From positions 1 through 54,452 of the forward strand of contig CAZZND010000001.1 of NCBI GenBank assembly GCA_964655465.1: 54,452 nucleotides of DNA. The letters run 5' to 3'. A program made the position numbers and the translations under genes. Below the pieces are notes generated by a model. That model worked only from the letters and a program-made list of their open reading frames with translations, was not told the DNA's origin and ran no database searches. Shown piece after piece: positions 14,803-35,369 of the stretch; position 1 is the stretch's first letter, and every line of letters begins with the position of its first letter. Source of the stretch: an uncultured Actinomycetes bacterium (GTDB lineage Bacteria > Actinomycetota > UBA4738 > HRBIN12).

Positions 14803-14829
14803 GCTGACTGTCGACCGTTGACAAGATCT
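14803..14829 (+). promoter_or_regulatory. Phased GTNNAC operator array (site 2) with promoter, upstream of the binding-protein operon
   Basis: GCTGAC-T-GTCGAC-C-GTTGAC-A-AGATCT, four hexamers with 7-bp period. TTGACA at 14818-14823 is a possible -35, with a TAGCGT -10-like box ~19 nt downstream. Confidence 0.55.
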
Positions 14830-14879
14830 GAGCCCCGGGCATAGCGTCCCGAGAGGAAAGGATCTAGGGGGAGGGATCC

Positions 14880-15965: not shown

Positions 15966-15987
15966 CGACATGAAAGGAGAGTTGCCC

Positions 15988-17085: not shown

Positions 17086-17116
17086 GAGTCGCGGGAAGGG
17101 GCGAAGAGGGAGCGCC

Positions 17117-17596: not shown

Positions 17597-17698
17597 ATGA
17601 GGCGGCCGATCGCCGAAATCCGGCATGCGACGGTGTCGGCGATGCGGGTCTTCGGCGCATCGCTCCCTTGCCCACACCGGGGGTCGTGGCTAGCGTCA

Positions 17699-17725
17699 CG
17701 ATCGGCGGGATCAGCCCGCCGATCG
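17699..17725 (+). other. Perfect 11-bp GC-rich hairpin immediately upstream of the RBS of the M20 gene
   Basis: CGATCGGCGGG-ATCAG-CCCGCCGATCG is followed by TGAGGGAGCG and GTG at 17736. Confidence 0.6.
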
Positions 17726-17735
17726 TGAGGGAGCG

Positions 17736-18881
17736 GTGCGTGATGACGAGGCGCTCAGGTTCGCCATCGACGAACTGGCCCGTCTGATCGAGATCCCTTC
17801 GGTTTCCGATCGCGAGCACGAAGCGATGAAGCACCTGGCGCTTCGGTGCCGGCAACTCGATCTGCCGGTCGAAGAGCAGCCGGTGGCGGGAGCGGGTCCG
17901 AACCTGCTCGTCGGATGGGACCCGTCGCCGACGCTCCTGTTGACGGCCCATATCGACACGATCGTCCCCACGTGGCAGACCGATCACCGAGCGACCGTTG
18001 ACGGATCCGTCGTCCACGGTCTCGGTGCGCAGGATGACAAAGGTTGCGCTGTCGCCATCTTGCTGGCTCTGCTCATGGCTCGCGATGCGGGGATGCCGGT
18101 CGAGCGCTTGCCGGTCGCTCTGGGGTTCTGCGTCGACGAGGAGGTCGGAGGGAAAGGCTCCCGAGCCATGGCGGACTCCATGCGTCCACCGTTCGTCGTC
18201 GCTTCGGAGGGAACGGAGCTCGACGTTGCCGTAACGGAGACAGGTTTCGTCGAGGCCTGGGTCCGGATCGAGGGGCGTTCGATGCACGGATCGCTGATCG
18301 AGGAGGCGGACAACCCGCTGCTGCGCGCTGCCGGTCTCATACAGGATCTCGTCCGGGCCCCCTTCACCCAGATCGAGCACCCCATCGCGGGCAGGAACAT
18401 GGTTGCCATCCTGCACCTGCTCGCCGAACAGCGTTCGAACGCAACACCCGATGAGGCCCTGATGCTTATCGCGGCCCGCGTCTTCGGACAGCCGGACCTC
18501 GGCGACGTGGCAGAGGAGCTGACGCGGATCTGCGCCGGGCACCGAGCGAGGTTCGAGGAGATCGATCGTGGCGGTTGGTGGGAGACGCAGTGGGACGCGC
18601 CGCTCGTCCGAGCGCTCGGCAGTGCATCCGAGCGAGCGATCGGCCGAACCCCGCGGCCCACCAGGATGCCGGCGTGGACCGATGCCCATAGCTTCCATGA
18701 CCGGAGCGGCTCGCAGGTGGTGGTCTACGGGCCGGGTCACCTGCGGACTGCTCACCGACCCGACGAGCACATCGATGCGGCGGAGATCGTGCGTGCGGCC
18801 CGCGTGATGGCCCAGGTGATCGGCGACGTCCATCAACTCGAGGACGCAGTGCCGGCGACGGAGAAAGGGGAAGCGCCATGA
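17736..18881 (+). CDS. M20-family amidohydrolase/peptidase (ArgE/DapE-like), paralog 2
   Basis: 381-aa ORF with a GTG start after the GAGGGAG RBS. It has LLLTAHIDTIVP, GAQDDKGC and AWTDAHSF, and is collinear with 10466-11578. Confidence 0.85.
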   Translation: MRDDEALRFAIDELARLIEIPSVSDREHEAMKHLALRCRQLDLPVEEQPVAGAGPNLLVGWDPSPTLLLTAHIDTIVPTWQTDHRATVDGSVVHGLGAQDDKGCAVAILLALLMARDAGMPVERLPVALGFCVDEEVGGKGSRAMADSMRPPFVVASEGTELDVAVTETGFVEAWVRIEGRSMHGSLIEEADNPLLRAAGLIQDLVRAPFTQIEHPIAGRNMVAILHLLAEQRSNATPDEALMLIAARVFGQPDLGDVAEELTRICAGHRARFEEIDRGGWWETQWDAPLVRALGSASERAIGRTPRPTRMPAWTDAHSFHDRSGSQVVVYGPGHLRTAHRPDEHIDAAEIVRAARVMAQVIGDVHQLEDAVPATEKGEAP

Positions 18882-19966
18882 AGCGTGGGAGGACCATCGC
18901 AGCGAGCCTGGCGACGGCGGTGCTGCTTGCCGCATGCGGCACCGGGGGAAGCACCACGGCGGAGGGGACGGAGACGAGCGCAGCGCCGCTCTCGGGCGAC
19001 CTCACCTTCTTCGCCTACGAGGACGCCTTCGAACCTGCGTTGTTGGATCCATTCGAGTCCGCCAACCCAGGGGTGAACGTCAGGACGGCGGCTTTCTCGA
19101 GCGCCGACGAGACGATCACGAAGCTGCAGAGCGGATTCGTGGCGGACGTGGTGAACGTCTGTGTTGAGGACACTGGCCGGATGGTGGCCTCGGGCCTGTT
19201 GCAGCCGATCGACACCGCGCGGCTCGCGAACTGGGAGCGGATGTTCCCGGCGTTCCGCGAGCTGGATGGAGTCGCCGTGGACGGGCAGGTGTACCTCGTG
19301 CCGATGGTGGGCGGGACGAGCGGGATCATGTACGACGAGGACGCCATACCGGAAGGGGTCAGCTCGTACGCGACCGCCTTCTCGGAGGAGTACGCGGGGG
19401 AGATCGGGCTGGATGACGATCCTCTGACGGGGATCGCGGTAGCCGCGATGGCCCTTGGCATCGAGGAGCCTCTCAACCTGACCGAGGACCAGCTCGCCCA
19501 AGTCAAGGGATTCCTGATCGAGAAGAAACCGCTGATCCGGTCGCTCTTCAAGGGGGACTCCGACGTGTCGCAGCTGTTCGGATCGGGTGAGATCAGCATC
19601 GCGATCCCGGGGTACAAGGGCACGACAGAGACCCTTCAGGACGACGGGCTGCCGGCGGCGTTCTCGCTCGCGTCCGAGGGACAGCTGACGTGGACCTGCG
19701 GCTACTCGATCGGCGCGAACGCCGAGAACGTCGATGCCGCCTACGCCCTGATCAACCACTACAGCCAGCCTCAGACCCAGGCCTGGCAAGCGGAGAACTT
19801 CTTCTACCTCGTGTCCAACCAAGACACGCTGGATGCGGTGGCACCCGAGATCGTCGAAACGGCGGGGCTCGAGGACCCGGGGAACTTCGAGAACGCCGTG
19901 CCGTACGCCGTCCCTTCGAACTACGACGAGTGGGTCGCGGTCTGGCGCGAGTTCAAGTCCGCGTAG
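18878..19966 (+). CDS. ABC transporter substrate-binding lipoprotein, PotD/PotF family, paralog 3
   Basis: 362-aa ORF whose ATG overlaps the upstream stop (ATGA). The lipobox is LLAACGT. The fold pattern matches the other SBPs. Confidence 0.9.
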   Translation: MKRGRTIAASLATAVLLAACGTGGSTTAEGTETSAAPLSGDLTFFAYEDAFEPALLDPFESANPGVNVRTAAFSSADETITKLQSGFVADVVNVCVEDTGRMVASGLLQPIDTARLANWERMFPAFRELDGVAVDGQVYLVPMVGGTSGIMYDEDAIPEGVSSYATAFSEEYAGEIGLDDDPLTGIAVAAMALGIEEPLNLTEDQLAQVKGFLIEKKPLIRSLFKGDSDVSQLFGSGEISIAIPGYKGTTETLQDDGLPAAFSLASEGQLTWTCGYSIGANAENVDAAYALINHYSQPQTQAWQAENFFYLVSNQDTLDAVAPEIVETAGLEDPGNFENAVPYAVPSNYDEWVAVWREFKSA

Positions 19967-19978
19967 CTCATGGAGCGG

Positions 19979-20005
19979 AGCGGCCCGGTCTCGGACCGGG
20001 CCGCT
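19979..20005. terminator. Bidirectional stem-loop between convergent genes
   Basis: AGCGGCCCGGTC-TCG-GACCGGGCCGCT, a perfect 12-bp stem between the stops at 19966 (+) and 20013 (-). Confidence 0.65.
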
Positions 20006-20012
20006 GAGGCCG

Positions 20013-21551
20013 TCACGATCCGCGCTCCCGGTCGATCAGGTGGGCCGGCTCCGGTGGAGGATGGGAGGCGATCTCGCGCACGGCCTCTGCAACCCGTTCG
20101 CAGGACCAGCGGAACAGATCGGTCGGCATGTCCAGCGGTGGCTGCAGCCGGTACACCCACTTGCCCCACTGCGTGAGCCCGAGGACGCCGCGCTGTACGG
20201 CGACACGGTGAACGGCCCTGTGGAAGGCCGGAGCGGGCCGGATCGAGCTCTTGTCCTGCACGAACTCGATGCCGATGTACGCGCCCGCTGCCCGGACGTC
20301 GCCCACCTGCTCGACCTGGTGCACGAGCGGTCCGAGCACCTCGAGCGCGGTCCGTTCCATCAGCATGACGTTCTCGAGCGCGCCGGTGTCGAGGATCGCG
20401 TCGATGTTGGCGAGGGCGCCCGCCGCAGATGGTGGCGTCCACGCGAAGGTGCCGCCCAGAGCGAGGGTGCTGCTCGCCATGATCTCCTCGGTGCCCAAGA
20501 TCGCGCCGATCGGCTGTCCACCGCCGCTGAACCCCTTGCCGAGGAGCAGCAGATCCGGGCGGATGCCGTAGCGCTCGGCCGCGAACATCGTGCCGCAGCG
20601 TCCCAGGCCGGTCTGGACCTCGTCGAGGATCAGCTTCCAGCCCCATCGCGTACACATCGCCTGCAACCGCTCCCAGAACGCGGGCGAGGGCACGATGATC
20701 CCGCCCTCACCCAGCACGGGCTCTATCAGTACGCCGGCGATCTCGCCTGGTTCGACCTGGTGAACCAGCACCCAGTCCTCGAGATAGTCGAGCGTGGCCG
20801 TGTCATCGAAGGGTCCGGCCCCGCGATGGAACGGGGCCCGGTAGGCGTTCGGGTAGGGGATGAAGACGAGGCCCGGCGCGAACTGCGCGTGCTGGGTAGT
20901 CACCTCGGAGAGATCGGTCGACGATCCCGCCGTGAGGTAGGTGCTCTCGCCGTGGTACTGACCGAGGAACCCGAGGATCATCGGGCGGCCCGTGGCCTCT
21001 CGAGCAAGCTTGATGCCGCCTTCGACCGCCAGGGTGCCCGACAAGGAGTAGGCGACCCGCGAAAGGCCCTCCGGCGCGATCTCGAGGATGCGCTCGGCGA
21101 GCTCGATGACCGGCTCCGAGATCGTGTAGGCGGTGTTCTGCATGCCGAGCGAGCGTTCGCACTCGATCACAGCCTCGGTCACTCTCGACGTCCCTCGAAG
21201 AGGGGTCGACCCCCAGGCCGAGACATGGTCGGCGAACGTGTTGCCGTCCACGTCCTCCAGCAGCCACCCTCGTTGCCTGGCAAGGACGAGGGGTACGTCC
21301 GCGTGGTCGGCACGGCCGATGTACCGGCGGTCGAATCGGTCCAAGAGCTTGGAACTCAACGGACCGGGCAACGACGTGCGGACGCGAGGAGATTCGCCCT
21401 CCAGGGATGTGCGTAGTCGGTCCGTCTCCGCGTCGATGGCCAGACTGTAGGTGTCCCGTTCCGTCCTGTCGTCTCGGATCGCGGCGTGAGGAGGCGAAGA
21501 TCCATCGAACTTCGGACCGTGGCGGTCGTCCTCTGCCTTGACTCGACCCAC
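20013..21551 (-). CDS. Class-III (omega) aminotransferase, paralog 2
   Basis: It has LPGPLSSKL, DEVQTGLGRCGTMFAAE and the PLP-lysine block LGKGFSGG. I place the start at the in-frame GTG 21551-21549. This GTG sits in the same TAGAC(A/T)-GTCGACC-start arrangement as kbl, and it avoids overlap with the divergent permease gene. The N-terminus is still uncertain. Confidence 0.8.
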   Translation of the reverse strand: MGRVKAEDDRHGPKFDGSSPPHAAIRDDRTERDTYSLAIDAETDRLRTSLEGESPRVRTSLPGPLSSKLLDRFDRRYIGRADHADVPLVLARQRGWLLEDVDGNTFADHVSAWGSTPLRGTSRVTEAVIECERSLGMQNTAYTISEPVIELAERILEIAPEGLSRVAYSLSGTLAVEGGIKLAREATGRPMILGFLGQYHGESTYLTAGSSTDLSEVTTQHAQFAPGLVFIPYPNAYRAPFHRGAGPFDDTATLDYLEDWVLVHQVEPGEIAGVLIEPVLGEGGIIVPSPAFWERLQAMCTRWGWKLILDEVQTGLGRCGTMFAAERYGIRPDLLLLGKGFSGGGQPIGAILGTEEIMASSTLALGGTFAWTPPSAAGALANIDAILDTGALENVMLMERTALEVLGPLVHQVEQVGDVRAAGAYIGIEFVQDKSSIRPAPAFHRAVHRVAVQRGVLGLTQWGKWVYRLQPPLDMPTDLFRWSCERVAEAVREIASHPPPEPAHLIDRERGS

Positions 21552-21568
21552 GGTCGACTGTCTACTAT
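21552..21568. promoter_or_regulatory. Phased GTNNAC operator (site 3) in a divergent promoter region
   Basis: GTCGAC-T-GTCTAC at 21553-21565. The plus-strand -10-like box is TACTAT (21563-21568). The minus-strand -10-like box is TAGACA (21564-21559), 7 nt before GTG 21551. Confidence 0.6.
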
Positions 21569-21636
21569 CTTCCGCCCGTCCCCAGCGCCGCTGCCGACCT
21601 GCCGGCGGCTCGGTACGGAGGGTGCCCGGAGGTGAC

Positions 21637-22518
21637 GTGGCCGACCAGATCGCGACGGTGAAGACTGAGGAGGAGCGCCGCTCTGAGCCGATCGGTGGGG
21701 CTGGTCGCCCCGCCCGCGTTGCCAGGATCGCCTTCCTGGCCGGGGTCATGCTGCTGCTGTACGGGCCACTAGCGGTCCTCGCCCTCTTCTCTTTCAACGA
21801 TCAGATCGTGATCGCGTTGCCGTTCCACGCATTCACGCTCGAGTGGTATCGAGAGGCGCTCGACAACAAGCTGGTTCGGGAGTCGCTGAAGAACTCGCTG
21901 ATCCTGGCCTCCATCGTGACGCCGGTCGCGGTGGTGCTCGGGACGCTGGCCGCGTTCGCCCTCACGCGGTTCGCCTACCGGCTCCGCGGCGGCGTGGCGA
22001 TCCTCGTGGGAGGTCCGCTCGTGGTGCCGTGGCTGCTGATCGCCGTCGGGCTGTTGCTGTTCTTCAGCCGGCTCAAGATAGCGCTAGGGTTCACCACGAT
22101 CGGCCTGTCGCACGTGGTGGTCGCGTTCCCGCTCGTTGCGGCCATCGTCTCGGCCCGGCTCCTGCGGTTCGATCCGCGCCAGGAAGAGGCGGCGCGCGAT
22201 CTGGGCGCCACCAACGGCGAGGTCCTGAGGTTCGTGATCCTCCCGCACCTCGCGCCCGCGATCGCCGCCGCGGCGGTCCTCGCCTTCAGCTACTCGTTCA
22301 ACAATTTCGTGATCAGCTTCTTCACCGGAGGCTTCGAGCTCACCTTCCCGACGTGGGTGTTCTCGACCCTCCGCCATGCGCAGAACGTGCCGATTGTCAA
22401 CGCGATCTCGACGCTCGTCTCGGCGGTCCAACTGGCGGTCATCGTGCTCGCCTGGGTGCTGTGGAACCGTCGCGCGCGCAGGATCGCCAGCGCCGACCCG
22501 ATGGCGATGCTGTGGTAG
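21637..22518 (+). CDS. ABC transporter permease (PotC-like), system 1
   Basis: In-frame GTG at 21637 follows GGAGG. The product is a multi-TM protein with the EAA-type loop EEAARDLGATNGEVLRFVILPHLAPAI. Confidence 0.85.
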   Translation: MADQIATVKTEEERRSEPIGGAGRPARVARIAFLAGVMLLLYGPLAVLALFSFNDQIVIALPFHAFTLEWYREALDNKLVRESLKNSLILASIVTPVAVVLGTLAAFALTRFAYRLRGGVAILVGGPLVVPWLLIAVGLLLFFSRLKIALGFTTIGLSHVVVAFPLVAAIVSARLLRFDPRQEEAARDLGATNGEVLRFVILPHLAPAIAAAAVLAFSYSFNNFVISFFTGGFELTFPTWVFSTLRHAQNVPIVNAISTLVSAVQLAVIVLAWVLWNRRARRIASADPMAMLW

Positions 22519-23393
22519 CCAGCGCAGCTGCTGCGCCTCACCGCCGTAGCCTCGCCGGGCCGTTCTACGCGGCGCTGCCCACGGCGGTGCTCCTGCTGCT
22601 GTTCGTGGGGCCGATGCTCATCCTGCTGTACTTCTCGTTCCAGGAGTCGCTGTTCGGCCAGGCGAAGGGCTGGACGTTCGACAACTACACGTCGATCCTG
22701 ACCGATCGCACCTACGGGAAGGTCATGCTCACCACCGTCACGATCTGCACGATCTCCATGCTGGTGATGCTCGCGATCGCGATCCCCATGGCCTACCTAC
22801 TCGCCTTCCGCCTGCGCCCGAAGATGGAGTTGCTGTTCCTCCTCCTGCTCGTGCTCTCCGAAGAGCTCAACCCGTTGATCCGGGTGTACGCCTGGCGCAC
22901 CATCTTGGGTCGGCAAGGAGTCGTGAACTTCCTTCTCATGAAGCTCGGGCTCATCGAACACCCGATCGACGTGCTGTTGTTCTCGAGCCTGGCGGTTGTC
23001 ATCGTCATGTCGACCACTTACGTGCCGTACACGACCATCCCGATCTACGCGGCGTTGAAGGCGGTGGACCCCTCACTTCTCGAGGCGGCGGACGATCTGG
23101 GGGCCTCGTTCGCGACGAGGTTCCGCAAGATCCTCCTTCCGCTCGCGGCGCCGGGGATCTTCGTGTCGATCATCTTGGTCTACATCCCCTTGTACTCGGA
23201 GTTCGCCGCGCCGTCGCTGGTCGGCGGGACCAGCGGCTACATGATCGGCAACGCCATCCAGGAGCAGATCCTGGAGGCGGGCAACCGCGGTGTCGGCGCG
23301 GCGATGAGCTTCATGTTGCTGGTGCTGTCGGGGGCGATCGCCTTCGCCGGGTACCGGCTCGGCAGGATCAAGCGGCTGCAAGCGACGGCATAG
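22512..23393 (+). CDS. ABC transporter permease (PotB-like), system 1
   Basis: In-frame GTG at 22512 overlaps the upstream stop. The product is a multi-TM protein with the EAA loop LEAADDLGASFATRFRKILLPLAAPGI. Confidence 0.85.
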   Translation: MVASAAAAPHRRSLAGPFYAALPTAVLLLLFVGPMLILLYFSFQESLFGQAKGWTFDNYTSILTDRTYGKVMLTTVTICTISMLVMLAIAIPMAYLLAFRLRPKMELLFLLLLVLSEELNPLIRVYAWRTILGRQGVVNFLLMKLGLIEHPIDVLLFSSLAVVIVMSTTYVPYTTIPIYAALKAVDPSLLEAADDLGASFATRFRKILLPLAAPGIFVSIILVYIPLYSEFAAPSLVGGTSGYMIGNAIQEQILEAGNRGVGAAMSFMLLVLSGAIAFAGYRLGRIKRLQATA

Positions 23394-23402
23394 GAGGACG
23401 AC

Positions 23403-24542
23403 GTGTCTGAGGCATCGGAGTCGCGGGGTGGCGGGCCCGCCATGCGGCTGGAGGGGGTGGTGAAGCGGTTCGGCGATGTCGTGGCGGTCGATCACATCGA
23501 CTTCGAGATCCGGCCGAGCGAGTTCTTCTCTTTGCTCGGTCCGAGCGGCTGCGGCAAGACCACGACCCTGCGCATGCTCGCAGGGTTCGAGCGCCCCACC
23601 GAGGGACGCATCCTGATCGACGAGGTCGACTCCGCCGATCTGCCGCCGCACCGCCGCGATACGAACATGGTGTTCCAGAGCTACGCGCTGTTCCCGCACA
23701 TGACCGTGGCGCAGAACGTGGCGTTCGGGCCGCAGCGCAAGCGGTTGGGGCGTGCGGAGGTCGAGAACGCCGTGCGTGAGGCTCTCGCCACGGTACGGAT
23801 GAGGGACTACGCCGGCCGCTACCCGCGCGAGCTCTCCGGCGGGCAGCAGCAGCGGATCGCGCTCGCGCGCGCGCTCGACGAGCCGCTCGGGGCGCTCGAC
23901 CTGAAGCTCCGCGAGGAGATGCAGTTCGAGTTGAAGCGCATCCAGCGCGACGTGGGGATCAGCTTCGTCTATGTCACGCACGACCAAGGTGAGGCCATCA
24001 CGATGTCGGATCGGATCGCCGTGATGAACGGCGGTCGTGTCGAGCACCTCGGCACACCCGAAGAGGTCTACCTGCGGCCCGCCACGCGGTTCGTGGCCGG
24101 CTTCATCGGGCAGGCGAGCTTCCTGCCGTGCCGCGTCGAGACCGCCGGCCGCGATAGCGCTCGTGTCGTGCTCCCCGGTGGGGTCCCCGCGACGGCCGGG
24201 GGTGCCGCGGCAGGGTGCGTCGCCGGCACCGAGGCCGTGCTGATGCTGCGCCCAGAGCACGTGCGGTTGAGCGCCGCCGATCCCGGCCGGCCCGGCTCGT
24301 TCCCGGCCCGTGTCGTCGAGCAGGTCTTCCAGGGCGCGGTGGTGCGCTACGGCCTCGAGGCCGCCGAAGGCGCGCGCCTCACGGCGATCACGCCGCTCGC
24401 CGACCGCCTCGACCCCGACGCAGGGGGCAACGCGTGGGTGAGCTGGTCCTCCGAGTGGGCGTACGTGTTGCCGGCCGAAGACGGGGGCGAGACGCCAGCA
24501 GAGCAGACGGCGAGGCTTCCCAGCGGCGACGTCGTGTCGTAG
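23403..24542 (+). CDS. ABC transporter ATP-binding protein (PotA-like), system 1, with a 9-aa deletion at Walker B
   Basis: It has Walker A [9 protein letters not shown], Q-loop [11 protein letters not shown], signature LSGGQQQR and H-loop YVTHDQ. The segment between the signature and DEP reads [14 protein letters not shown], whereas the paralog reads [23 protein letters not shown]. Confidence 0.85.
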   Translation: [379 protein letters not shown]

Positions 24543-24554: not shown

Positions 24555-25808
24555 TTGTCATCCACCCACGCTGATCTTGTGATCGCGGCGTTCGCGATCG
24601 ACGAGATCGTCGAGGGGACCCAGACAGGGCGGGACGGCACGACGCTGATCGTGTCGCCACCGCAGCTCGCGGTCGGAGCCGGGGAACCGGCACTGGCGGA
24701 GGCCACGGTCGAGGTCGTCCGTCCCGGCGATCGCGTCCGCATCTCGAACGTCCTCGATGCCGTGCTGCCCGACGTGCGCGCGGACGACCCCGTGTGCACG
24801 TTCCCGGGTGCCCTCGGCACCCTCAGCCCGGCGGGGAACGGCCGGTTGCATCGCCTGCGCGGGGTCGCGGTCCTGTCGGTCTGCGACTGGCAGGCCGCCG
24901 GCCACGTCGAGCCCGACGACTTCCCGGATTGCGTCGTGGACATGGACGGGCCGGGCGCGTCCCTCAGCCCCTGGGGCTCGACGTGCAACGTCGTCGTGCG
25001 GGCGGTGCCGGCGACCGGCGCGCCGGTCGCCGACGTAGATCGCGCGATCCGGCGCGCGACGCTTCGCGTCGCGCGCACCCTCGCCGAGACAACCATGGAG
25101 GCTGCGCCCGACGACGTGACCACCTTCGGACCGCTGCGCGCCGCGCCGGACGACCTGCCTCGCGTCGCGGCCATCCTGCAGGTCGCCTCCGAGGGTCCGC
25201 TGACCGACACGTTCTTCTACGGGGCGCCGATGGGCGGCCTGGTTCCCACCGTGATCGATCCCCGCGAACCGCTCGGTGGCGCGTTGATCAACGGGGCGTA
25301 CGACTGGCCGTCGGTCCGCAACCAGACGGCGACGTACCAGGACCTCGCGCTCGTCCACGAGCTGATCGCCGCCGACGGCGAGCGTCTGCGCTTCGCCGGG
25401 CTGATCGTGGCGCTCGGCTACCTCAGCACGGCGTTCGAGAAGCAGCGTTCGGCCATGCTGTCGGCGCGTCTCGCCCGTTCTCTCGGAGCCGACGCTGCGA
25501 TCTGCACGACGTTCTCGTCGGGCAACTCCCACACCGACACGATGCTCACCGTGCGCGCGCTCGAGCGTATGGACATCGCCGCGGTGCCGATCGTGGCCGA
25601 GACCAACGGCGGGCTCACCGACCACGTCCCCGAGGCCGTGAGCATCGTGAGCGTGGGGAACGAGGACGAGCTCGTCGAGGCGTGGACGCCCGACCGCGTG
25701 ATCGGGAGCGACGGGCCCGCGCGCGCCGGCGAGCCCGTCCCGACGTGGGCGTACCTCGGCGCGACGGTGCAGACCGGTGACGGATGGCTCCAGGCGGTGC
25801 CGGCATGA
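24555..25808 (+). CDS. Glycine/sarcosine/betaine reductase component B, GrdE/GrdG/GrdI-family subunit (no mid-protein Cys, so GrdI-like)
   Basis: 417-aa ORF. From memory it is collinear with GrdE-family proteins (VEVVRPGDRVRISNVLDAV...FPGALG...GRLHRLRGVAV; CVVDMDGPGASLSPWGSTCNVVV; SSGNSHTD...PIVAETNG). Its stop overlaps the start of the GrdB-like gene (ATGA). The start is uncertain: TTG 24555 or GTG 24579. Confidence 0.72.
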   Translation: MSSTHADLVIAAFAIDEIVEGTQTGRDGTTLIVSPPQLAVGAGEPALAEATVEVVRPGDRVRISNVLDAVLPDVRADDPVCTFPGALGTLSPAGNGRLHRLRGVAVLSVCDWQAAGHVEPDDFPDCVVDMDGPGASLSPWGSTCNVVVRAVPATGAPVADVDRAIRRATLRVARTLAETTMEAAPDDVTTFGPLRAAPDDLPRVAAILQVASEGPLTDTFFYGAPMGGLVPTVIDPREPLGGALINGAYDWPSVRNQTATYQDLALVHELIAADGERLRFAGLIVALGYLSTAFEKQRSAMLSARLARSLGADAAICTTFSSGNSHTDTMLTVRALERMDIAAVPIVAETNGGLTDHVPEAVSIVSVGNEDELVEAWTPDRVIGSDGPARAGEPVPTWAYLGATVQTGDGWLQAVPA

Positions 25809-27094
25809 CGGTCGTGCACTACCTCAACCAGTTCTTCGCCGGCCTCGGCGGCGAGGAGGTGGCCGGCCACGAACCGATCCGCCTCGACGGACCGCAGGGC
25901 CCGGGACGAGGTCTCGCGGCCGAGGGTCTCGACGTCGACGTCACCCTCGCCTGTGGCGACGATCATTTCGGTGAGCACGAGGACGAAGCGCTGCGGACCC
26001 TCCTCGGCTGGATCGACGAGCTCGATCCGGACGTGCTCGTCTGCGGGCCGGCGTTCGGCTCGGGTCGCTACGGCTACGCGTGCGGCGTGCTGGCGCGCGA
26101 GGCCGCGCGGCGCGGCGTGCCGGTCGTGACCGCGATGACGCCCGACTCGCCCGGGGTGCTCGCTGCCGAGGGCGCGGCGTACGTCGTGCCGACCACGTCC
26201 AATGTCGCCGGCATGCGGGCGGTGCTGCCCGTCGTGGCAGGGCTCGCGAAGAGGCTCGCCGCCGCCGAGGCCGTGGGGGGGCCCGAGGAGGAGGGCTACC
26301 TGCCGCGGGGGCTCCGCGCGAACGCGCGGGCCGATCGCCCGGGCGCCGCGCGCGCGATCGACCTGGCGCTCGCCCGCCTGGCCGGCGAAACGATGACCGA
26401 GGTCGAGCCCTCCGGCGATCGGGTACCGCCGCCGCCCGCGCTGACGGACCTCTCGGATGCCACGATCGCGCTCGTCACGGAGGCCGGCTGTGTGCCACAG
26501 GGCAATCCCGATCGCTTGCCCACGCGTCGCGCCAACGTGTGGTTGCGTTATCCGATCGATGGGGTCGCGTCGTTCACCGCCGACCGGTATCAGTCGGTCC
26601 ACGCTGGCTTCGACACGACCGCCGCGAACGAAGATCCCAACCGCCTGGTGCCGCTCGACGCCGCGCGCGCGTTAGAAGCGGCCGGCAAGTTCGGTCGCTT
26701 GCACGACGCGTTCTACACGACGTCGGGCGTCGACACGCCGGTGGCCACGGCCGCCAAGTTCGGGCGCGAGATCGCCGAGGAATGCCGCGAGGCCGGGGTG
26801 CAGGCCGTGATCCTGACAGGCACCTGAGGGACAGGAACGCGTTGCGGGGCAACGCTGTCGAAGGAGTTGGAGCGGATGGGGATCCCGACCGTGTTCATCA
26901 CGGCGCTCCCGACCATCGCGCAGATGGTGGGCGCCAACCGGATCATGCGCGGTGTCTCGATCACGCACCCCACGGGCGACCCGTCGCTCGCGGCTGGGGA
27001 CGAGCTCGCACTTCGCACCGCGATGCTCGACCGCGCCCTGGACATGCTGCAGACCGACGTCGGGCCGCTGACGGTGTGGGAGGTCGAACGCTGA
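25805..27094 (+). CDS. grdB: Selenoprotein B of a Grd-type reductase (GrdB/GrdF/GrdH family); TGA 26825-26827 decoded as selenocysteine
   Basis: The N-terminus MTVVHYLNQFFAGLGGEE is the hallmark GrdB start. ORF 25784..26827 ends ...AVILTGT at a TGA. The same frame continues GTGTRCGATLSKELERMGIPTVFITALPTIAQMVGANRIMRGVSITHPTGDP..., which includes the 75-aa ORF 26867..27094. This reproduces the U-x2-C-x2-C Sec motif of GrdB. The product is 429 aa with Sec at residue 341. The symbol is family-level only. Confidence 0.88.
26838..26857 (+). other. Candidate bacterial SECIS hairpin for the GrdB-like UGA
   Basis: The 7-bp stem GCGTTGC/GCAACGC (26839-26845 and 26849-26855) has a G-rich apex (GGG). 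It starts about 11 nt after the UGA, and C26838:G26857 extends it across a bulged T. Confidence 0.55.
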
Positions 27095-27095
27095 C

Positions 27096-28409
27096 GTGAC
27101 CACCCCCGCGATCCTCGGCGCCAGTCTGACCCTGCAGCACGTGCCCGACCTCGTGCGGCACGGGTCCAAACCGGCGCGCGAGCCCGACCTGCTGCCCCGG
27201 TTGCTCACGTCGCTCAGGACCTACGACGACGCCGTCGCGTACCCGCCGCATCAGGTGTTCATCGGCAACCTCTCGCCGCGCGCGCTCCGTGACCTGCCTC
27301 GGCCGTGGTGGCGCGACGCGCCTCCCGCGCCCGAGGACGGGCCGAGCGGGCAGATCGTCGATGAGGCCACGTTCTACGAGTGGCTCGCCGCGCTCGACCG
27401 GTTCGAGCTGGTGCGCATGAAACAGGAGCCTCGTCCCGGAGATCTGCCACTGTACGCAGGCGGAGAAGTCATCGGCGCGTTCGCGCCTGGCCACGACCAG
27501 GACGAGTCGCTCACCGCCTCGGTGCTGCTCGAGAACCTGTCGTGCCTGGTGAGCGCGACGTCCGCGACCCGCCACCTGCTGACCGCCTCCGGTGTCGATC
27601 CCGCGTCGATCACCCATGTGATCGCCTGCGGCGAAGAGGCGATCGGCGACCGCTACCAGCGTGGCGGCGGCAACCTCGCGAAGGCGGTCGCCGAGGCCTG
27701 CGACCTGACCGAGGCCAGCGGCGCCGACGTGAAGGCGTTCTGTGCGGGCCCGATCCACGCGCTGATCGTCGCCGGGGCGCTCGTCGCCTCCGGCGTGCAC
27801 GACCGGGTCGCCGTCGTGGCCGGCGGATCGCTCGCCAAGCTCGGCATGAAGTTCCTCGGGGCGCTCGAGACCGGTGGGCCGATCATCGACGATACCCTCG
27901 CGGGGATGGCCGTCTTGGTGGGCCGCGCCGAGGACGATCCGTCTGCGCCGGTCATGCGCATGGACGCGATCGGACGCCACCGCACCGGCTCGGTCTCGCA
28001 GCAGGCCTTGCTGGAGGACATCGTCGGTGGACCGCTGGATGCGATGGGTATCGGCATCGCCGACATCGATGTCTACGCGACGGAGCTGCACAACCCCGAG
28101 GTCACCGAGCCCGCCGGCGGCGGCGACGTGCCCGACCGCAACTACCGGATGCTCGCGGGGCTCGGGGTCGTTCGAGGCGAGCTCGAGCGCGAGGCGATGG
28201 CCACGTTCGTGCACGACCACGGCTTGCCCGGCTTCTCGCCCACGCAGGGGCATATCGCCTCGGGCGTGCCCTGGCTCCCGCACGCGCTCGCGCGGTTCCG
28301 CGCGCGCGACCTCGACCGAACGATGTTGCTCGCCAAAGGCAGCCTGTTCCTCGGGCGGATGACGCGGCTGTGGGACGGCGCCTCGATCACCATGGAGGCC
28401 CAACGATGA
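27096..28409 (+). CDS. grdC: Grd reductase component C, beta subunit (GrdC-like, thiolase/KAS-III-like fold)
   Basis: 437-aa ORF with a GTG 2 nt after the GrdB stop. These blocks match my recollection of GrdC: ASLTLQHVPDLVRHG, AYPPHQVFIGNLSP..PWW, ACGEEAIGDRYQRGGGNLAKAV, DVKAFCAGPIHALI, EPAGGGDVPDRNYRML, GLPGFSPTQGHIASGVPW and KGSLFLGRMT. Confidence 0.75.
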   Translation: MTTPAILGASLTLQHVPDLVRHGSKPAREPDLLPRLLTSLRTYDDAVAYPPHQVFIGNLSPRALRDLPRPWWRDAPPAPEDGPSGQIVDEATFYEWLAALDRFELVRMKQEPRPGDLPLYAGGEVIGAFAPGHDQDESLTASVLLENLSCLVSATSATRHLLTASGVDPASITHVIACGEEAIGDRYQRGGGNLAKAVAEACDLTEASGADVKAFCAGPIHALIVAGALVASGVHDRVAVVAGGSLAKLGMKFLGALETGGPIIDDTLAGMAVLVGRAEDDPSAPVMRMDAIGRHRTGSVSQQALLEDIVGGPLDAMGIGIADIDVYATELHNPEVTEPAGGGDVPDRNYRMLAGLGVVRGELEREAMATFVHDHGLPGFSPTQGHIASGVPWLPHALARFRARDLDRTMLLAKGSLFLGRMTRLWDGASITMEAQR

Positions 28410-28762
28410 ACGTCAGCGCCGAGACCTACGACGTCCTCGCGACGAGCGGCCACGTCTTCCTCGACGTGTGGGGTCCGCAGTGCCAGCCGTGCATCGCGAT
28501 GATGCCGGCGATCGACGATCTGGCGCGCCGTTACGACGGCCGGGTCAAGGTCTTGAAGCTCGAAGGGCCCGAGCACCGCGAGCTGTGCCGCTCGCTCCGC
28601 GTGGCCGGTCTGCCCACCTACATCACGATGCGCGACGGCGGCGAGGTCGAACGCCTGACCGGCAACGGGCTCACGTTCACCGACCTGGAGGCCGCGATCG
28701 AGCGGCTGCTGGACGGCGCCCCCGTGGTGGGGCTCCCCGTTCCCGAACACCTGAGGGGGTGA
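28406..28762 (+). CDS. Thioredoxin-family protein with an atypical CQPC active site
   Basis: ATG at 28406 overlaps the GrdC stop (ATGA). It reads FLDVWGPQCQPCIAMMPAIDDLARRYDGRVKVLKLE...GLPTYITMRDGGEV, a Trx fold with CQPC in place of CGPC. Length 118 aa. Confidence 0.85.
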   Translation: MNVSAETYDVLATSGHVFLDVWGPQCQPCIAMMPAIDDLARRYDGRVKVLKLEGPEHRELCRSLRVAGLPTYITMRDGGEVERLTGNGLTFTDLEAAIERLLDGAPVVGLPVPEHLRG

Positions 28763-28773: not shown

Positions 28774-29232
28774 ATGGAACTTCGAGGCAAGAAGGTGATC
28801 GCCCTCGGCGAGCGCGACAGCGTGCCCGGCGAGGCGCTCGCCGAGGTCGCCCGCTCGGCGGGCGCCGAGGTCATCGAGGTGCGCACGGAGTGCTTCGTCT
28901 GAACAGCTTCCGGTGCGATGGATCCTGAGAACCAGGGACTGATCAAGGGGATCGTCGAGGAACACGGCTCCGCCGACCTGGTCGTGCTGCTGGGCGCAGC
29001 CGACGAGGACGCGGTGGAGGTCGCGGCCCAGACGGTCCGTGAGGGCGATCCCTCGTACGTGGGTCCACTCGCCGGGGTCCAGTTGGGACTCCCCGTGCTG
29101 CACGTCTTCGAGGACCAAGTGAAGGAGCAGGCCGACCCGGTCGTCTACGAGGAGCAGGTCGGTTTCTTCGTGCTGTCCTTCGACACCGGCGCGATCATCC
29201 AGGCGATGCGGCGGGCCCGTGGCGAAGCCTGA
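28774..29232 (+). CDS. grdA: Glycine/sarcosine/betaine reductase complex selenoprotein A (GrdA); TGA 28900-28902 decoded as selenocysteine
   Basis: MELRGKKVIALGERDSVPGEALAEVARSAGAEVIEVRTECFV-[TGA]-TASGAMDPENQ...VVLLGAADEDAVEVAAQTVREGDPSYVGPLAGVQLGLPVLHVFE. The CFV-U-TAxGAMD motif and GPLAGVQLGLPV are diagnostic of GrdA. The ORF track splits the gene into the end of 28468..28902 and 28918..29232. The product is 152 aa with Sec at residue 43. Confidence 0.92.
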
Positions 29233-29258: not shown

Positions 29259-30455
29259 TCAGGATCGAAGACCGAGCTCACGGCCGACGCGGCCGAAGAT
29301 GGCGATGGCCTCGTCGAGATCGTCGTCAGTATGGTCCGCGGTCACGATGGTGCGCACGCGCGCCCGACCCTTCGCCACCGTCGGGAACACGATCGCCGGG
29401 GCGAACACCCCGGCGTCGAACAGCGCGGCGGCGAACGCCTGGGCCGTCGACTCGTCGCTGGTGATCACCGGGGTGATCGGGGTCTCCGACCCGCCCGTGT
29501 CGAACCCGAGCCCGGCCAGCCCCTCCTTGGATCGTGCGGTGTTCGTCCACAGGCGCTCGAGCCGCTCGGGCTCGTCGCGCATGACGCCGAGCGCCTCGAG
29601 GCATGCCGCCGCCACCGCGGGCGGCGTCGATGTCGAGAACAGGTACGGACGCCCGCGTTGTCGCAACCACTCGATGAGGTGGGCCGGGCCCGCGATGAAC
29701 CCGCCGAGCACGCCGATCGCCTTCGACAGCGTCCCCACCTGGATGTCGACGCGGCCGTGCAGGCCGAAGTGGTCGACCGTGCCTGCGCCGCCCGCGCCGA
29801 GGACCCCGCTCGCGTGTGCATCGTCGACCATCATGATCGCGCCCCGCCGCTCGGCGACCTCGACCAGGTCCGGCAGGGGCGCGATGTCGCCGTCCATAGA
29901 GAACACGCCGTCGGTGATCAGCAGCTGCCGGCGGGCCTCGCCGGCGGTCTCGGCCAACAGACGCTCGGCATGGGCGGCGTCGGCGTGCTCGTAGACCTCG
30001 ATCCTGGCCTTCGACAACCGGGCGCCATCGATGATCGACGCGTGGTTGAGCCGGTCGGACACGATCACGTCCTCGGGCCCCAAGATCGCGGCGACGGTGC
30101 CGGCGTTCGCGGCGAACCCCGACTGGAACATCAGCGCCGCTTCCGCGTGTTTGAAGGCGGCGAACCGTTCCTCCAACTCGACGTGCAGGTCCATCGTCCC
30201 CGCGATCGTTCGGACCGCCCCCGAGCCGGCGCCCAGGTCGCGGGCAGCCCGTGCCGCCGCCTCGTTGAGGCGCGGATGGTTCGCGAGACCCAGGTAGTTG
30301 TTCGACGCGAGGTTGATCACCTCGCGACCGTCGAAGGTCGCGCGGGCTCCGGTCGGGCCGGACAAGGTGCGCGACCGCAGGAGCAGCCCGTCGGCCTCGA
30401 GGCTGGCGACCTCGTCGCGGAGGAACGCGAGCCGGTCCACGGATCCAGCTGACAT
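29259..30455 (-). CDS. kbl: Glycine C-acetyltransferase (2-amino-3-ketobutyrate CoA ligase), Kbl/BioF family
   Basis: ATG at 30455 (MSAGSVDRLAF...) gives 398 aa. Blocks are NLASNNYLGLANHP, VRTIAGTMDLHVELE, VSDRLNHASIIDG, DDAHASGVLG and GTLSKA (PLP Lys). The LNHASIIDG block and the length favour Kbl over BioF. Confidence 0.78.
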   Translation of the reverse strand: MSAGSVDRLAFLRDEVASLEADGLLLRSRTLSGPTGARATFDGREVINLASNNYLGLANHPRLNEAAARAARDLGAGSGAVRTIAGTMDLHVELEERFAAFKHAEAALMFQSGFAANAGTVAAILGPEDVIVSDRLNHASIIDGARLSKARIEVYEHADAAHAERLLAETAGEARRQLLITDGVFSMDGDIAPLPDLVEVAERRGAIMMVDDAHASGVLGAGGAGTVDHFGLHGRVDIQVGTLSKAIGVLGGFIAGPAHLIEWLRQRGRPYLFSTSTPPAVAAACLEALGVMRDEPERLERLWTNTARSKEGLAGLGFDTGGSETPITPVITSDESTAQAFAAALFDAGVFAPAIVFPTVAKGRARVRTIVTADHTDDDLDEAIAIFGRVGRELGLRS

Positions 30456-30469
30456 GGTCGACAGTCTAC
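30456..30469 (-). promoter_or_regulatory. Phased GTNNAC operator (site 5a) with -10 TAGACT, directly abutting the kbl start codon
   Basis: The minus strand reads TAGACT-GTCGACC-ATG. The plus strand reads GTCGAC-A-GTCTAC at 30457-30469. The geometry fits a leaderless transcript. Confidence 0.6.
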
Positions 30470-30505
30470 CGTCATGGATGGCAACCCCAGGTGGTGTTGT
30501 CACCG

Positions 30506-30521
30506 GTTGACGGTCTACCAT
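30506..30521 (+). promoter_or_regulatory. Phased GTNNAC operator (site 5b) with -10 TACCAT, 6 nt upstream of the GntR start
   Basis: GTTGAC-G-GTCTAC at 30506-30518. TACCAT at 30516-30521 is followed by GGGTGC and ATG 30528. Confidence 0.6.
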
Positions 30522-30527
30522 GGGTGC

Positions 30528-31196
30528 ATGACGCAACTCACTCCACTGGAGGTGCCTCGTTCCCTCGCCGAGGACGCCGCCGACCGCGTTCGGGAACAGA
30601 TCCTGTCCGGCGGATTCGCCCAGGGCGAGCACCTCGTTGAAGCGAAGATCGCCGAGCAGCTCGGGATCAGCCGCGGGCCGGTGCGCGAAGCCTTCAAGCT
30701 GCTGCGCGCCGAGGGCCTACTGCAGGAAGAGCCCCGGCGTGGGACCTTCGTGGTACGGATGGTGCCGGACGATGTGCGCGAGATCTACGGGCTCCGGGCC
30801 TCGATCGAAGGACGGGCCGCCCGGATGGTGGCGGGAGCGCGAGACGACGATGTGCTCGGAAGGCTTCGGACGAGACTCGGCGCGATCGACGACGCCGTCC
30901 GGAGCGGCGACGCTGCCGCGGTGTTCCAGGCAGACCTGGCGTTCCACCAGGAGATGGTCGCCCTGGCCGGCAACAGCAGGATCGCCGAGGTGTTCGCCAG
31001 GTACGTGCCGACGCTCCGAGCGTTGCTCCGGCTCGATGAGCATGTCTACCGTTCGCTCGACGACATCGCGATGGAGCACCGGCCGTTGTTCGAGGCTATC
31101 GAAGCCGGAGACGCCGACGAAGCTGCTCGGCTCGCCGAGCAACACTGCGACCACGCGGGCGACCTGATCGCCGACTACGTCGAAAGCGGCGGGTAG
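30528..31196 (+). CDS. GntR-family transcriptional regulator (FadR/VanR-like, FCD ligand domain)
   Basis: Starts MTQLTPLEVPRSLAEDAADRVREQILSGGFAQGEHLVEAKIAEQLGISRGPVREAFKLLRAEGLL (GntR wHTH). The C-terminal region is all-helical and FCD-like. I chose ATG 30528 over 30474 because of the promoter geometry. Confidence 0.85.
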   Translation: MTQLTPLEVPRSLAEDAADRVREQILSGGFAQGEHLVEAKIAEQLGISRGPVREAFKLLRAEGLLQEEPRRGTFVVRMVPDDVREIYGLRASIEGRAARMVAGARDDDVLGRLRTRLGAIDDAVRSGDAAAVFQADLAFHQEMVALAGNSRIAEVFARYVPTLRALLRLDEHVYRSLDDIAMEHRPLFEAIEAGDADEAARLAEQHCDHAGDLIADYVESGG

Positions 31197-31216
31197 GGGG
31201 TCTCCGAGGTCGTTTC

Positions 31217-31239
31217 GTAGACGGTTGACGATCTACCAT
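31217..31239 (+). promoter_or_regulatory. Phased GTNNAC operator (site 6) with promoter, upstream of ABC system 2
   Basis: GTAGAC-G-GTTGAC-G-ATCTAC at 31217-31236. The -10-like box is TACCAT at 31234-31239. Confidence 0.6.
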
Positions 31240-31306
31240 CGGGTGTCCTAGCTTCACGGCCATCCGGACACGACGCCCCGGATCTGGGGCAGGGGAGGGC
31301 TGGATC

Positions 31307-32431
31307 ATGCGTCGTCGATCTCTCGGTGCGGTCGCCTTGGCAGCGACCTTCGCGATCTTCTCGGCGGCGTGTTCGTCCGACACGACGCCGTCCGAACCCA
31401 CGAGCTCGGCGGGCGGGACCGCGACCGCAGCCCCCTCGGGCCCCCTGCGGTTGTTCTCCTACAGCGACGGGTTCGATCCGACCTACATGGAGACGTTCTT
31501 CGAGGAGTACCCCGACATCGAGCTCGAGACCGCCGCGTTCGGGTCGAACGACGAAGCCATCGCCAAGCTCCTCGCGGGCTTCGAGGCCGACGTCGTGAAC
31601 AGCTGTGTCGACGAGGCAACCCTTGAGATGGTGACCAGGGGTCTGTACCAGCCGCTGGATCTGTCGCGTCTCGAGCATTGGGAAGAGCTCTTCCCGTCGA
31701 TGAAGGAGCTTCCCGGCGTCGTGGTGGATGGGCAGGCATACATCGTGCCGGTCGATGCCGGCACCGCAGGGATCATGTACGACGCCGACGTGGTCACCGA
31801 GACGCCGGATTCATGGCTCGACCTGTTCGACCCGCAGTGGGCGGACCGCGCCTCGATTGAAGACCTGTCCGTGACCGCGATCGACATCGGCGCCCTCGCG
31901 ACGGGCATCACCGACCCGATCGGCATGGATGAGGCGCAGCTGGAGCAGGTCAAGCAGTTCCTCATCGACAACCGTGGTCAGTTCCGCACGTTCTGGAAGG
32001 GCGAAGCGGACATCAAGGCACAGTTCAAGAACGGCGAGGTGGTGATCGCGAGCGGGTATCCCGGCACCGCGAAGTCTCTCCGGGATCAGGGCGTGAACGT
32101 CCAGTTCGCGCAGGCGTCGGAGGGTCAGCCGCTGTGGACGTGCGGCTACGGGATCAGCCCCGAGGCCGAGAACCTCGACGCCGCGTACGCGCTGCTGAAC
32201 TGGTACACGAGCCTTCCCCCGCAGATCTACGCGGCCGAGAACTTCAGCTATGTCACGTCGAACAGCAAGATCGTCGACGAGGTGTCCGAGGACGTGCTCA
32301 ACGCCACGGGGATCATGCGCTTCGTCACCGGAGCTGACGGCGCCCCCGCCGACGTCAACCTGATCCCGGCGAGCCCGCCTGAAGACTCAGAGGCCTGGCG
32401 CGCGGCCTGGACCGAGGTCAAGGCGTCGTAG
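31307..32431 (+). CDS. ABC transporter substrate-binding lipoprotein, PotD/PotF family, paralog 4
   Basis: 374-aa ORF preceded by the RBS GGGGAGGG. The signal peptide ends IFSAACSS. It is collinear with SBP paralogs 1-3. Confidence 0.9.
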   Translation: MRRRSLGAVALAATFAIFSAACSSDTTPSEPTSSAGGTATAAPSGPLRLFSYSDGFDPTYMETFFEEYPDIELETAAFGSNDEAIAKLLAGFEADVVNSCVDEATLEMVTRGLYQPLDLSRLEHWEELFPSMKELPGVVVDGQAYIVPVDAGTAGIMYDADVVTETPDSWLDLFDPQWADRASIEDLSVTAIDIGALATGITDPIGMDEAQLEQVKQFLIDNRGQFRTFWKGEADIKAQFKNGEVVIASGYPGTAKSLRDQGVNVQFAQASEGQPLWTCGYGISPEAENLDAAYALLNWYTSLPPQIYAAENFSYVTSNSKIVDEVSEDVLNATGIMRFVTGADGAPADVNLIPASPPEDSEAWRAAWTEVKAS

Positions 32432-35365: not shown

Positions 35366-35369
35366 ACCG

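Follow-up and report, generated by a model that had tools for sequence, protein, structure and literature searches.

A 54,452-nt stretch of an uncultured Actinomycetes bacterium (contig CAZZND010000001.1, positions 1–54,452), called the window below, carries an operon related to the glycine reductase (Grd) family of selenoenzymes. Its first gene is at positions 24555–25808 on the forward strand and encodes a GrdE-like specificity subunit (the E protein) that is 417 amino acids (aa) long from a TTG start. There is no cysteine (Cys) at the pyruvoyl site, and the subunit is unable to form a Cys-derived pyruvoyl group. On present sequence comparisons the E protein is fairly likely to be a specificity subunit that stays unprocessed and has no pyruvoyl group, in a Grd-type reductase for an uncharacterised substrate. 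The enzyme would probably act on a non-classical compound in a way that needs no such cofactor. Selenoenzymes of the Grd type are regarded as a mark of strict anaerobes that ferment amino acids, and to our knowledge they have only four or five known substrates. What is new here is the system, a conserved variant Grd-type selenoenzyme operon in soil Actinomycetota, which the literature searched apparently does not describe; nothing relevant on Grd systems in actinobacteria was found there. Its new features are an altered selenocysteine (Sec) motif, the absence of GrdD and a link to amine catabolism. The missing Cys by itself is not new in the family.

The E protein matches Pfam family PF09338 (Gly_reductase, described as "Glycine/sarcosine/betaine reductase component B subunits") with an E-value of 1.7e-73 (residues 8–386) and is a full-length member of the family. 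Database entries for this protein are 409 aa, with a start 8 codons further 3' than the TTG. The G+C content of the window is 69.6%, and the G+C content at third codon positions (GC3) of the E gene is 0.91. This value, together with start and stop codons that overlap those of neighbouring genes, indicates that the open reading frame (ORF) is a real gene. Translation of positions 24555–25808 shows Cys at residues 81, 110, 126, 144 and 317 only, and a scan of the 417 aa finds no Asn-Cys dipeptide, both as the original prediction had listed them. That prediction had also singled out positions 25272–25340 on the forward strand, which encode residues 240–262, LGGALINGAYDWPSVRNQTATYQ. The region is the correct one, being homologous to the self-cleavage region of GrdE and GrdG, but the coordinates are 15 nt off from the 27-residue peptide quoted with them, DPREPLGGALINGAYDWPSVRNQTATY, which represents residues 235–261 (positions 25257–25337). 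An AlphaFold2 model of the E protein is one continuous chain with a confidence (pLDDT) of 96, and it carries no information on processing. In proproteins of the GrdE/GrdG type, cleavage yields chains of approximately 25 and 22 kDa with a carbonyl at the N-terminus.

The cleavage position is occupied by tyrosine (Tyr). Tyr249 (codon TAC, positions 25299–25301, forward strand) shares a column with the pyruvoyl-precursor Cys242 of GrdE and GrdG in four comparisons: a MAFFT alignment of 131 sequences, an L-INS-i alignment with both GrdE and both GrdG copies of Peptoclostridium (Eubacterium) acidaminophilum, an L-INS-i alignment with the GrdI orthologue of Enterococcus gilvus, and pairwise tblastn. 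In all four, Ser253 shares a column with the second conserved Cys of GrdE, Cys246. The local sequence is NGA-Y-DWPS, and the alignment is anchored by the flanking motifs DGA[IL]xxG and [RK]NxT. The GrdE references are the two copies from P. acidaminophilum and one from Acetoanaerobium sticklandii. The GrdG/GrdF references are two pairs from the P. acidaminophilum megaplasmid, with the GrdG copies scoring 859 and 881 bits against a curated cut-off of 780. The GrdI reference is the E. gilvus pCR1A gene that lies between grdD and the GrdH gene (798 bits against 775), after which comes a BCCT transporter gene. The characterised subunits covered by the alignments are thus GrdE, GrdG and, through the E. 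gilvus orthologue, GrdI; no grdI is found in the 10-kb flanks of either chromosomal P. acidaminophilum grdE locus.

All three GrdE and both GrdG sequences have Cys at the site (...DGA[IV]xSGN-C-V[SA][SP]C-DK..T...). The Asn-Cys context near residue 240 that the original prediction gave for GrdE is present as SGN|C, with Cys242, in the P. acidaminophilum proteins, and the placement of the cleavage region made by eye agrees with the four comparisons. In the GrdI orthologue from E. gilvus this residue is Phe (SGS-F-MPCS). In the window the residue is Tyr and not Cys, Ser or Thr. In Clostridioides difficile GrdE, Cys242 is the pyruvoyl site mapped by mass spectrometry through peptide 242–266 (PMC9908766). 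GrdI and FarE are reported to be without processing cysteines and not to be proproteins (PMC10838667). The Tyr at the cleavage site, the Phe in the GrdI orthologue and these two precedents are the reasons why an unprocessed, non-pyruvoyl subunit, as originally predicted, is the best reading of the sequence.

The absence of Cys in one sequence is statistically unremarkable, but the replacing residue is conserved. A scan of 185,579 species-representative genomes gave 88 relatives, of which the best 80 were kept as orthologous loci and examined to ±10 kb. All 80 are from uncultured metagenome-assembled genomes (MAGs) of Actinomycetota, mainly from soil catalogues (Actinomycetes, Thermoleophilia, Gaiellales and one Streptosporangiaceae). 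Protein identity across these approximately 80 species-level MAGs is 42–85%. Tyr249 is kept in 78 of the 80 loci as mapped by tblastn; of the other two, one is a frameshifted assembly and one (locus L056) has Ser. Trp251 (codon at positions 25305–25307) is conserved alongside Tyr249 in a motif G-x-Y-[DH]-W. The residue before Tyr249 is variable (A, Q or E), the residue after it varies between Asp and His, and position 253 is G, A or S across the clade. The retention of Tyr249 with the co-conserved Trp251 implies that the site is selected for Tyr and is not merely degenerate. Ser253 is not a substitute nucleophile, since its position drifts between G, A and S.

The Ser-bearing locus L056 (E gene approximately 10001–11122, MAG MFD09212.bin.2.71) represents a paralogue with the local sequence SGE-S-FWAA. 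A B gene alone comes after the E gene there; C, thioredoxin and A genes are missing. The same MAG also carries a standard copy with EYHW (L076). The Ser at this site could in principle support pyruvoyl formation.

The wider family shows the same tendency at this site. HMMER, run exhaustively over 1.84 billion cluster representatives, gave 711 family clusters at 50% identity, and the site was read in the 123 full-length representatives nearest the query. Tyr is present in 67 of these, Phe, His or Trp in 26 (93 with an aromatic residue or His), and Cys in only 6; Leu also occurs at the site in the wider family. Five of the six Cys-bearing representatives cluster with GrdE/GrdG, where Cys is retained in every sequence sampled, and the sixth, P0297, is an outlier. 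A site without Cys is therefore the normal state of the family among the sampled clusters; if the window system is active, pyruvoyl-dependent enzymes would be the exception in these clusters and not the rule. The missing Cys is informative, but it is not a novelty, because Cys is rare at the site in the family and GrdI and FarE provide precedents (PMC10838667). None of 10 family representatives compared with NCBIfam reached the GrdG or FarE cut-offs. The names looked up for 10 family representatives are generic only, and GrdI is not identifiable from them. Annotation pipelines that call all family proteins "glycine reductase" would miss such a prevalence of non-pyruvoyl members.

These distributions also bear on whether a carbonyl or quinone cofactor arises from another residue, either as a quinone derived from Tyr249 or as a pyruvoyl group derived from Ser or Thr at a different site. 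A near-invariant Tyr at the exact cofactor position, followed by Asp or His, and a paralogue with Ser at the site would fit such an origin. However, no copper-site or other maturation signature is seen, the residues on both sides of the Tyr vary, and the clade-invariant Ser and Thr residues sit in motifs that are also present in Cys-type proteins. An obligatory Tyr-derived cofactor is unlikely because the family holds F, H, W or L at the same site, and we regard this explanation in its several forms as very improbable. A topaquinone-like cofactor, considered on account of an N-Y-D motif, was given low weight in view of the variable flanking residues and the tolerance of F, H, W and L.

The E gene is followed by four genes in the order B(Sec)-C-Trx-A(Sec), where Trx is thioredoxin. 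The gene junctions are overlapping start and stop codons and are translationally coupled. GC3 is 0.88–0.91 in every operon gene scored, and E-B-C-Trx-A synteny is present in approximately 70 of the 80 loci. The selenoprotein B-like subunit (PF07355) is encoded at positions 25784–27094 on the forward strand, with a likely ATG start at 25805 that overlaps the E stop codon. It has an in-frame UGA for Sec at positions 26825–26827 within the motif GT-U-GTGTRCG. The B protein scores 414 bits with TIGR01918 (various_sel_PB) and passes the cut-off of 65. The TGA is kept in 76 of 77 loci and the Sec motif is the same in all clade members where it was found. In GrdB, GrdF and GrdH the motif is ST-U-GTCTRCG. 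The first Cys of UxxCxxC is thus Gly in the clade of the window, and the second Cys is kept (U-GT-G-TR-C). A hairpin resembling a selenocysteine insertion sequence (SECIS), with the core GCGUUGC-GGG-GCAACGC, is situated just 3' of the UGA at positions 26830–26859 on the forward strand. Its offset and shape are those of the hairpin that follows the P. acidaminophilum grdB UGA, although its energy alone is not significant (z = -0.4). One locus (L022:12238) has TGC for Cys in place of the TGA and represents a natural Sec-to-Cys variant.

The third gene (positions 27096–28409, forward strand) encodes a GrdC-like protein, i.e., a protein C beta subunit with a ketoacyl synthase III-like (KAS-III-like) domain and DUF5940. 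It scores 499 bits with NF040746 and passes the cut-off of 450. The protein is 437 aa compared with 513 aa for the canonical form. It is 43% identical to the GrdC of P. acidaminophilum and approximately 75 aa shorter; an internal stretch is deleted and the C-terminal tail is missing, but the Cys of the FCAGP motif is retained. A GrdC-like gene is found in 73 loci. It is followed by a dedicated thioredoxin gene (PF00085, positions 28406–28762, forward strand) with the active site C-Q-P-C; the CxPC motif is as in the Grd-operon thioredoxins of P. acidaminophilum and E. gilvus, and the gene is present in approximately 70 of the 80 loci. Selenoprotein A (GrdA) is encoded at positions 28774–29232 on the forward strand and has an in-frame UGA at 28900–28902 (ECFV-U-TASGAMD). 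It scores 186 bits with NF040748 and passes the cut-off of 130, and its TGA is kept in 70 of 70 loci. The B-like and GrdA genes each appear as two ORFs, divided at the in-frame TGA, when ORFs are listed mechanically. A tRNA-Sec gene (selC, anticodon TCA) was located by ARAGORN at positions 54093–54186 on the reverse strand. No selA, selB or selD was recognised among the window ORFs scanned.

GrdD is the protein C subunit credited with acetyl phosphate formation. It belongs to PF02504 (PlsX-like), and two GrdD queries gave no tblastn match with E < 0.1 in the window and the 80 loci (1.48 Mb). In the same 1.48 Mb there is no match to GrdX, and TrxB gives only short matches to its N-terminal FAD-binding segment. 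These three absences, the shortened GrdC and the loss of the first Cys of UxxCxxC could be taken as signs that a Grd operon is decaying here or survives only as a non-functional remnant. Against this, the architecture, the Sec codons and Tyr249 are all maintained across the approximately 80 MAGs at protein identities of 42–85%, GC3 is high in the operon genes, the start/stop junctions overlap and a tRNA-Sec gene is present. A remnant is already strongly disfavoured and is extremely unlikely. The Sec codons, the hairpin, the tRNA-Sec and the GrdA, GrdC and various_sel_PB scores above cut-off argue instead for a working Grd-type system.

The operon belongs to the Grd type. Its proteins reach none of the curated NCBIfam/TIGRFAM thresholds that define glycine, sarcosine, betaine, fluoroacetate and proline reductases. 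The E protein scores 151.9 bits with the GrdG model (NF040793, cut-off 780) and 98.4 with FarE (NF053623, cut-off 675), and has no match to PrdA (TIGR04480, cut-off 700). The B protein is below every specific cut-off: 412 with GrdF (NF040794, cut-off 800), 380 with GrdB (TIGR01917, cut-off 602), 375 with GrdH (NF040795, cut-off 775) and 78.6 with PrdB (TIGR04483, cut-off 300). Its aa sequence identity is 43% to GrdB, 43% to GrdF and 40% to GrdH. The E protein is about equally distant from GrdE, GrdG and GrdI (28–32% identity). The likely substrate, on these comparisons, is none of the four characterised ones.

GrdE of P. acidaminophilum, A. sticklandii and C. difficile is similar to the E protein in that it belongs to PF09338, is alignable over the full length, and has a Sec-containing B gene next door together with GrdA, GrdC and thioredoxin. 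It differs in sequence (29–32% identity) and in having Cys242 and Cys246 where the window protein has Tyr249 and Ser253. The partner B protein lacks the GrdB motifs, and the window operon is without GrdD, GrdX and TrxB, whereas grdC-grdD and trxB are present in the canonical operons of P. acidaminophilum and E. gilvus. The hosts of GrdE are Stickland fermenters, and the host of the window operon is a soil actinobacterium. The sarcosine reductase pair GrdG/GrdF also shares PF09338 and provides the best NCBIfam models for both E and B. However, GrdG keeps SGN|C-VAPC, and GrdF has IHGGYDR and the ST-U-GTCTRCG motif. The neighbours of GrdG/GrdF in P. acidaminophilum are a BCCT transporter and a creatinase-like M24 gene.

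The P. acidaminophilum megaplasmid (809 kb, NZ_CP007453) has two grdG-grdF pairs that are 83% identical, each preceded by a sigma-54 regulator. One pair is accompanied by the BCCT gene, the creatinase-like M24 gene and grdA, and the other by grdX.

A glycine or sarcosine reductase that does without the GrdE pyruvoyl group, with the carbonyl on the B subunit or dispensable, is quite unlikely on these data. The role of the GrdE pyruvoyl group is described as unsettled, and GrdB may bear its own carbonyl (PMC9908766). Joint Genome Institute (JGI) pipelines do name homologues glycine or sarcosine reductase. In the window a gene similar to glycine C-acetyltransferase (Kbl; 487 bits with NF005394, cut-off 460) adjoins the operon at positions 29259–30632 on the reverse strand, divergent from it. 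However, this adjacency recurs in only 3 of 83 sources, so that Kbl is no conserved neighbour; its position is probably incidental, and the gene was rejected as a pointer to a glycine substrate. The TIGR01917 and GrdF scores are well below threshold, and Cys is kept in every sampled sequence of the GrdE/GrdG cluster. The published signatures are AHGGxD..RV[IL]PxD..TxGNxTxV for GrdB and IHGGYDR..TTGTGT for GrdF (PMC9908766). The corresponding motifs of the window B protein (VHAGFDTT, RLVPLD, TTSGVDTP and GPAFGSGRYG) match neither.

The E-type subunit of betaine reductase, GrdI, partnered by GrdH (E. gilvus pCR1A), has an aromatic residue and no Cys at the cleavage position, and thereby sets the precedent for a subunit that is not processed. 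The B protein of the window has VHAGFD at residues ~268–275, similar to IHAGFD in GrdH, and both have partners without Cys. The pyruvoyl-partnered GrdB and GrdF have HGG[HY]D. This co-variation is seen in four data points only and is a lead rather than a rule. The B protein of a more distant system (L087), with a partner that has Gln at the site, has IHGGFD. The aromatic residue (Phe there, Tyr here), the HAGFD motif and the fact that betaine requires no Schiff base (PMC10838667) would all be consistent with an actinobacterial betaine reductase, i.e., a GrdI/GrdH orthologue that converts glycine betaine to trimethylamine and an acetyl unit. The original prediction had suggested a betaine-like substrate on similar grounds. 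This part does not hold up well. The GrdH score of the B protein is less than half of the cut-off and is lower than its GrdF score, and the E protein is only about 30% identical to GrdI, which is itself closer to GrdE (40%). The Sec motif is GT-U-GTG and not the ST-U-GTC that GrdH keeps. The E. gilvus operon has grdC, grdD, trxB and a BCCT transporter gene. BCCT is absent from the window and from the conserved neighbourhood, and no OpuA-type betaine transporter is seen in the window; the operon is accompanied instead by PotD-like ATP-binding cassette (ABC) transporters, aminotransferases and a flavin adenine dinucleotide (FAD) oxidoreductase. A betaine reductase is therefore unlikely.

Two other systems provide useful comparisons. 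FarE of the fluoroacetate reductase FarE/FarB (Cloacibacillus porcorum) is also reported to lack both processing cysteines, and the pair demonstrates that leaving groups other than amines are within the reach of the family. In FarB the CxxC after Sec is reported to be lost (PMC10838667), and the B protein of the window, compared by description, has lost the first Cys only. The two systems differ in the low FarE score (98 against 675), in the absence of a radical-SAM farC-type gene from the window operon, and in phylum and gene neighbourhood. PrdA/PrdB of D-proline reductase are distant homologues with the same logic of a Sec protein plus a specificity subunit. However, PrdA is a proprotein whose pyruvoyl group comes from a Cys (Cys421 in C. 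difficile), and proline reductase uses neither GrdA nor GrdC.

The window is an amine-catabolism island, with the genes concerned at positions 5658–19966 and 30474–40884 on either side of the operon. The island has four PotD-like binding proteins, two ABC transporter sets, three class-III aminotransferases, three M20 deacylases, two CrtI-family FAD oxidoreductases, AsnC and GntR regulators, and an agmatine deiminase (39772–40884). Immediately upstream is the first PotD-like ABC set (18878–24542, forward strand), which consists of a substrate-binding protein (18878–19966), permeases (21538–23393) and an ATPase (23403–24542), with a class-III aminotransferase gene on the reverse strand (20013–21797) in the same region. 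These gene types recur beside the operon in most orthologous loci. Downstream on the forward strand, a family scan identifies a GntR/FCD regulator (30474–31196), a second PotD-like ABC transporter set (31307–35365), of which the binding protein occupies 31307–32431, and a class-III aminotransferase (35301–36689). Further upstream, also on the forward strand, a module at 5658–13161 has the two CrtI-family FAD oxidoreductases (5658–7691 and 11272–13161), a class-III aminotransferase (8988–10466) and an M20 deacylase (10400–11578). Most of the 80 loci have this module directly upstream of E, with a CrtI-family FAD oxidoreductase, a class-III aminotransferase and, in many cases, an M20 deacylase. 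The commonest downstream arrangement is A, GntR regulator, substrate-binding protein, permease, ATPase and class-III aminotransferase. The window has the same parts in a slightly different order. PotD-like ABC transporters are present in the window and most of the 80 loci, whereas the E. gilvus and P. acidaminophilum operons have BCCT. The gene neighbourhood suggests a transported amine-type compound.

The following mechanism is proposed for the non-pyruvoyl enzyme. The E protein would remain one chain of approximately 44 kDa, without cleavage, and would serve as the substrate-specificity (alpha-type) subunit paired with the adjacent Sec-containing B-like subunit. The Sec of B would attack the methylene carbon of a substrate X-CH2-COO-, and the carboxymethyl group would then be handed to the Sec of GrdA. 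The operon thioredoxin would reductively release the group as an acetyl thioester on the GrdC-like protein. Since no Schiff-base cofactor is available, X would have to be a good leaving group by itself, e.g., a nitrogen in quaternary or iminium form, or some other group that departs readily. The pair Tyr249/Trp251 probably helps to bind or position X and is a candidate for binding a cationic leaving group. With GrdD missing from the operon, the acetyl group probably exits as acetyl-coenzyme A (acetyl-CoA) or acetate and not as acetyl phosphate.

Several points weigh against a non-pyruvoyl enzyme of this kind. The aminotransferase and polyamine-type binding-protein neighbours suggest primary or secondary amines, and in classical Grd chemistry such amines are handled via a Schiff base. 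The suggestion in the original prediction that the substrate is not bound through a primary or secondary amine fits poorly with these neighbours. GrdD is not found at the operon and the downstream chemistry is uncertain. All 80 loci are from uncultured MAGs, and the clade is known from sequence alone. No solved structure was found that would place Tyr249 relative to the Sec: searches of the PDB with the E protein, with the 131-sequence profile and with the B protein gave zero matches, and Foldseek with the E model gave at best a match to macrodomains (E 0.019, TMq 0.17), so that there is no structural template for the site. A carbonyl cofactor could also arise otherwise, on the B subunit or from another residue; a second carbonyl has been proposed on the B subunit (GrdB) of glycine reductase (PMC9908766).

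Three more distant E genes without Cys are found in a Burkholderiales MAG, a 7.6-Mb metagenome contig and a Limnocylindria MAG (L086–L088). All three are paired with a Sec-containing B gene, and two of the three have a Sec-containing GrdA and a GrdC-like gene of approximately 477 aa; GrdD is present in none of the three. Their neighbourhoods are mutually unrelated; among the genes there are those for an alcohol dehydrogenase, a DeoC aldolase, an FGGY kinase and a GMC oxidoreductase. Two Grd-family genes have also been placed in a gut riboflavin-degradation cluster (preprint, bioRxiv 10.64898/2026.02.13.705874). Taken together, this suggests that many X-CH2-COOH substrates are open to Grd chemistry, with the pyruvoyl-dependent glycine and sarcosine enzymes as one specialised branch.

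A more detailed proposal combines these features, and as a whole it is rather unlikely. The window clade would be part of a large pyruvoyl-less and GrdD-less Grd group in non-fermenting soil bacteria (Actinomycetota, Burkholderiales, Limnocylindria and others). In the window clade the enzyme would reductively remove a carboxymethyl group from a transported amine, the nitrogen of which is made into a good leaving group by the substrate pathway itself. For instance, the FAD oxidoreductase or a class-III aminotransferase could make a cyclic iminium or a quaternary N-carboxymethyl compound, an option that is attractive chemically, if speculative. The iminium carried by the substrate would replace the pyruvoyl Schiff base carried by the enzyme, with Tyr249/Trp251 as the cation site. 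The acetyl unit would leave via the GrdC-like thiolase-fold protein alone, e.g., to CoA.

Uncultured soil Actinomycetota keep the Sec-dependent operon in at least 80 species-level genomes. The operon has neither the pyruvoyl precursor nor the acetyl phosphate-forming subunit and is tied to genes for amine uptake and transamination. If active, it would represent a new substrate class and a cofactor-independent cleavage of a C-N (or C-X) bond beside a carboxylate, as well as an additional use of selenium in soil bacteria.

Phosphate-scavenging genes (type I phosphodiesterase, PhoX, alkaline phosphatase and Ppx/GppA) are also scattered over the window at positions 3–1868, 7429–9096, 37565–39010 and 51811–53907, with no established link to the operon. 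In the deeper branches of the clade the surroundings of the operon are different. In Gaiellaceae a bare E-B-C-Trx-A operon is located beside the gene for the caa3-type cytochrome c oxidase assembly factor CtaG (L074:14698–15510, reverse strand). This neighbour hints at oxygen respiration in the Gaiellaceae hosts, a setting in which a Grd-type selenoenzyme would not be expected. At one Thermoleophilia locus the additional genes are those for an amidohydrolase, an APC permease and an aldehyde dehydrogenase. In view of these differences, specificity may vary within the clade.

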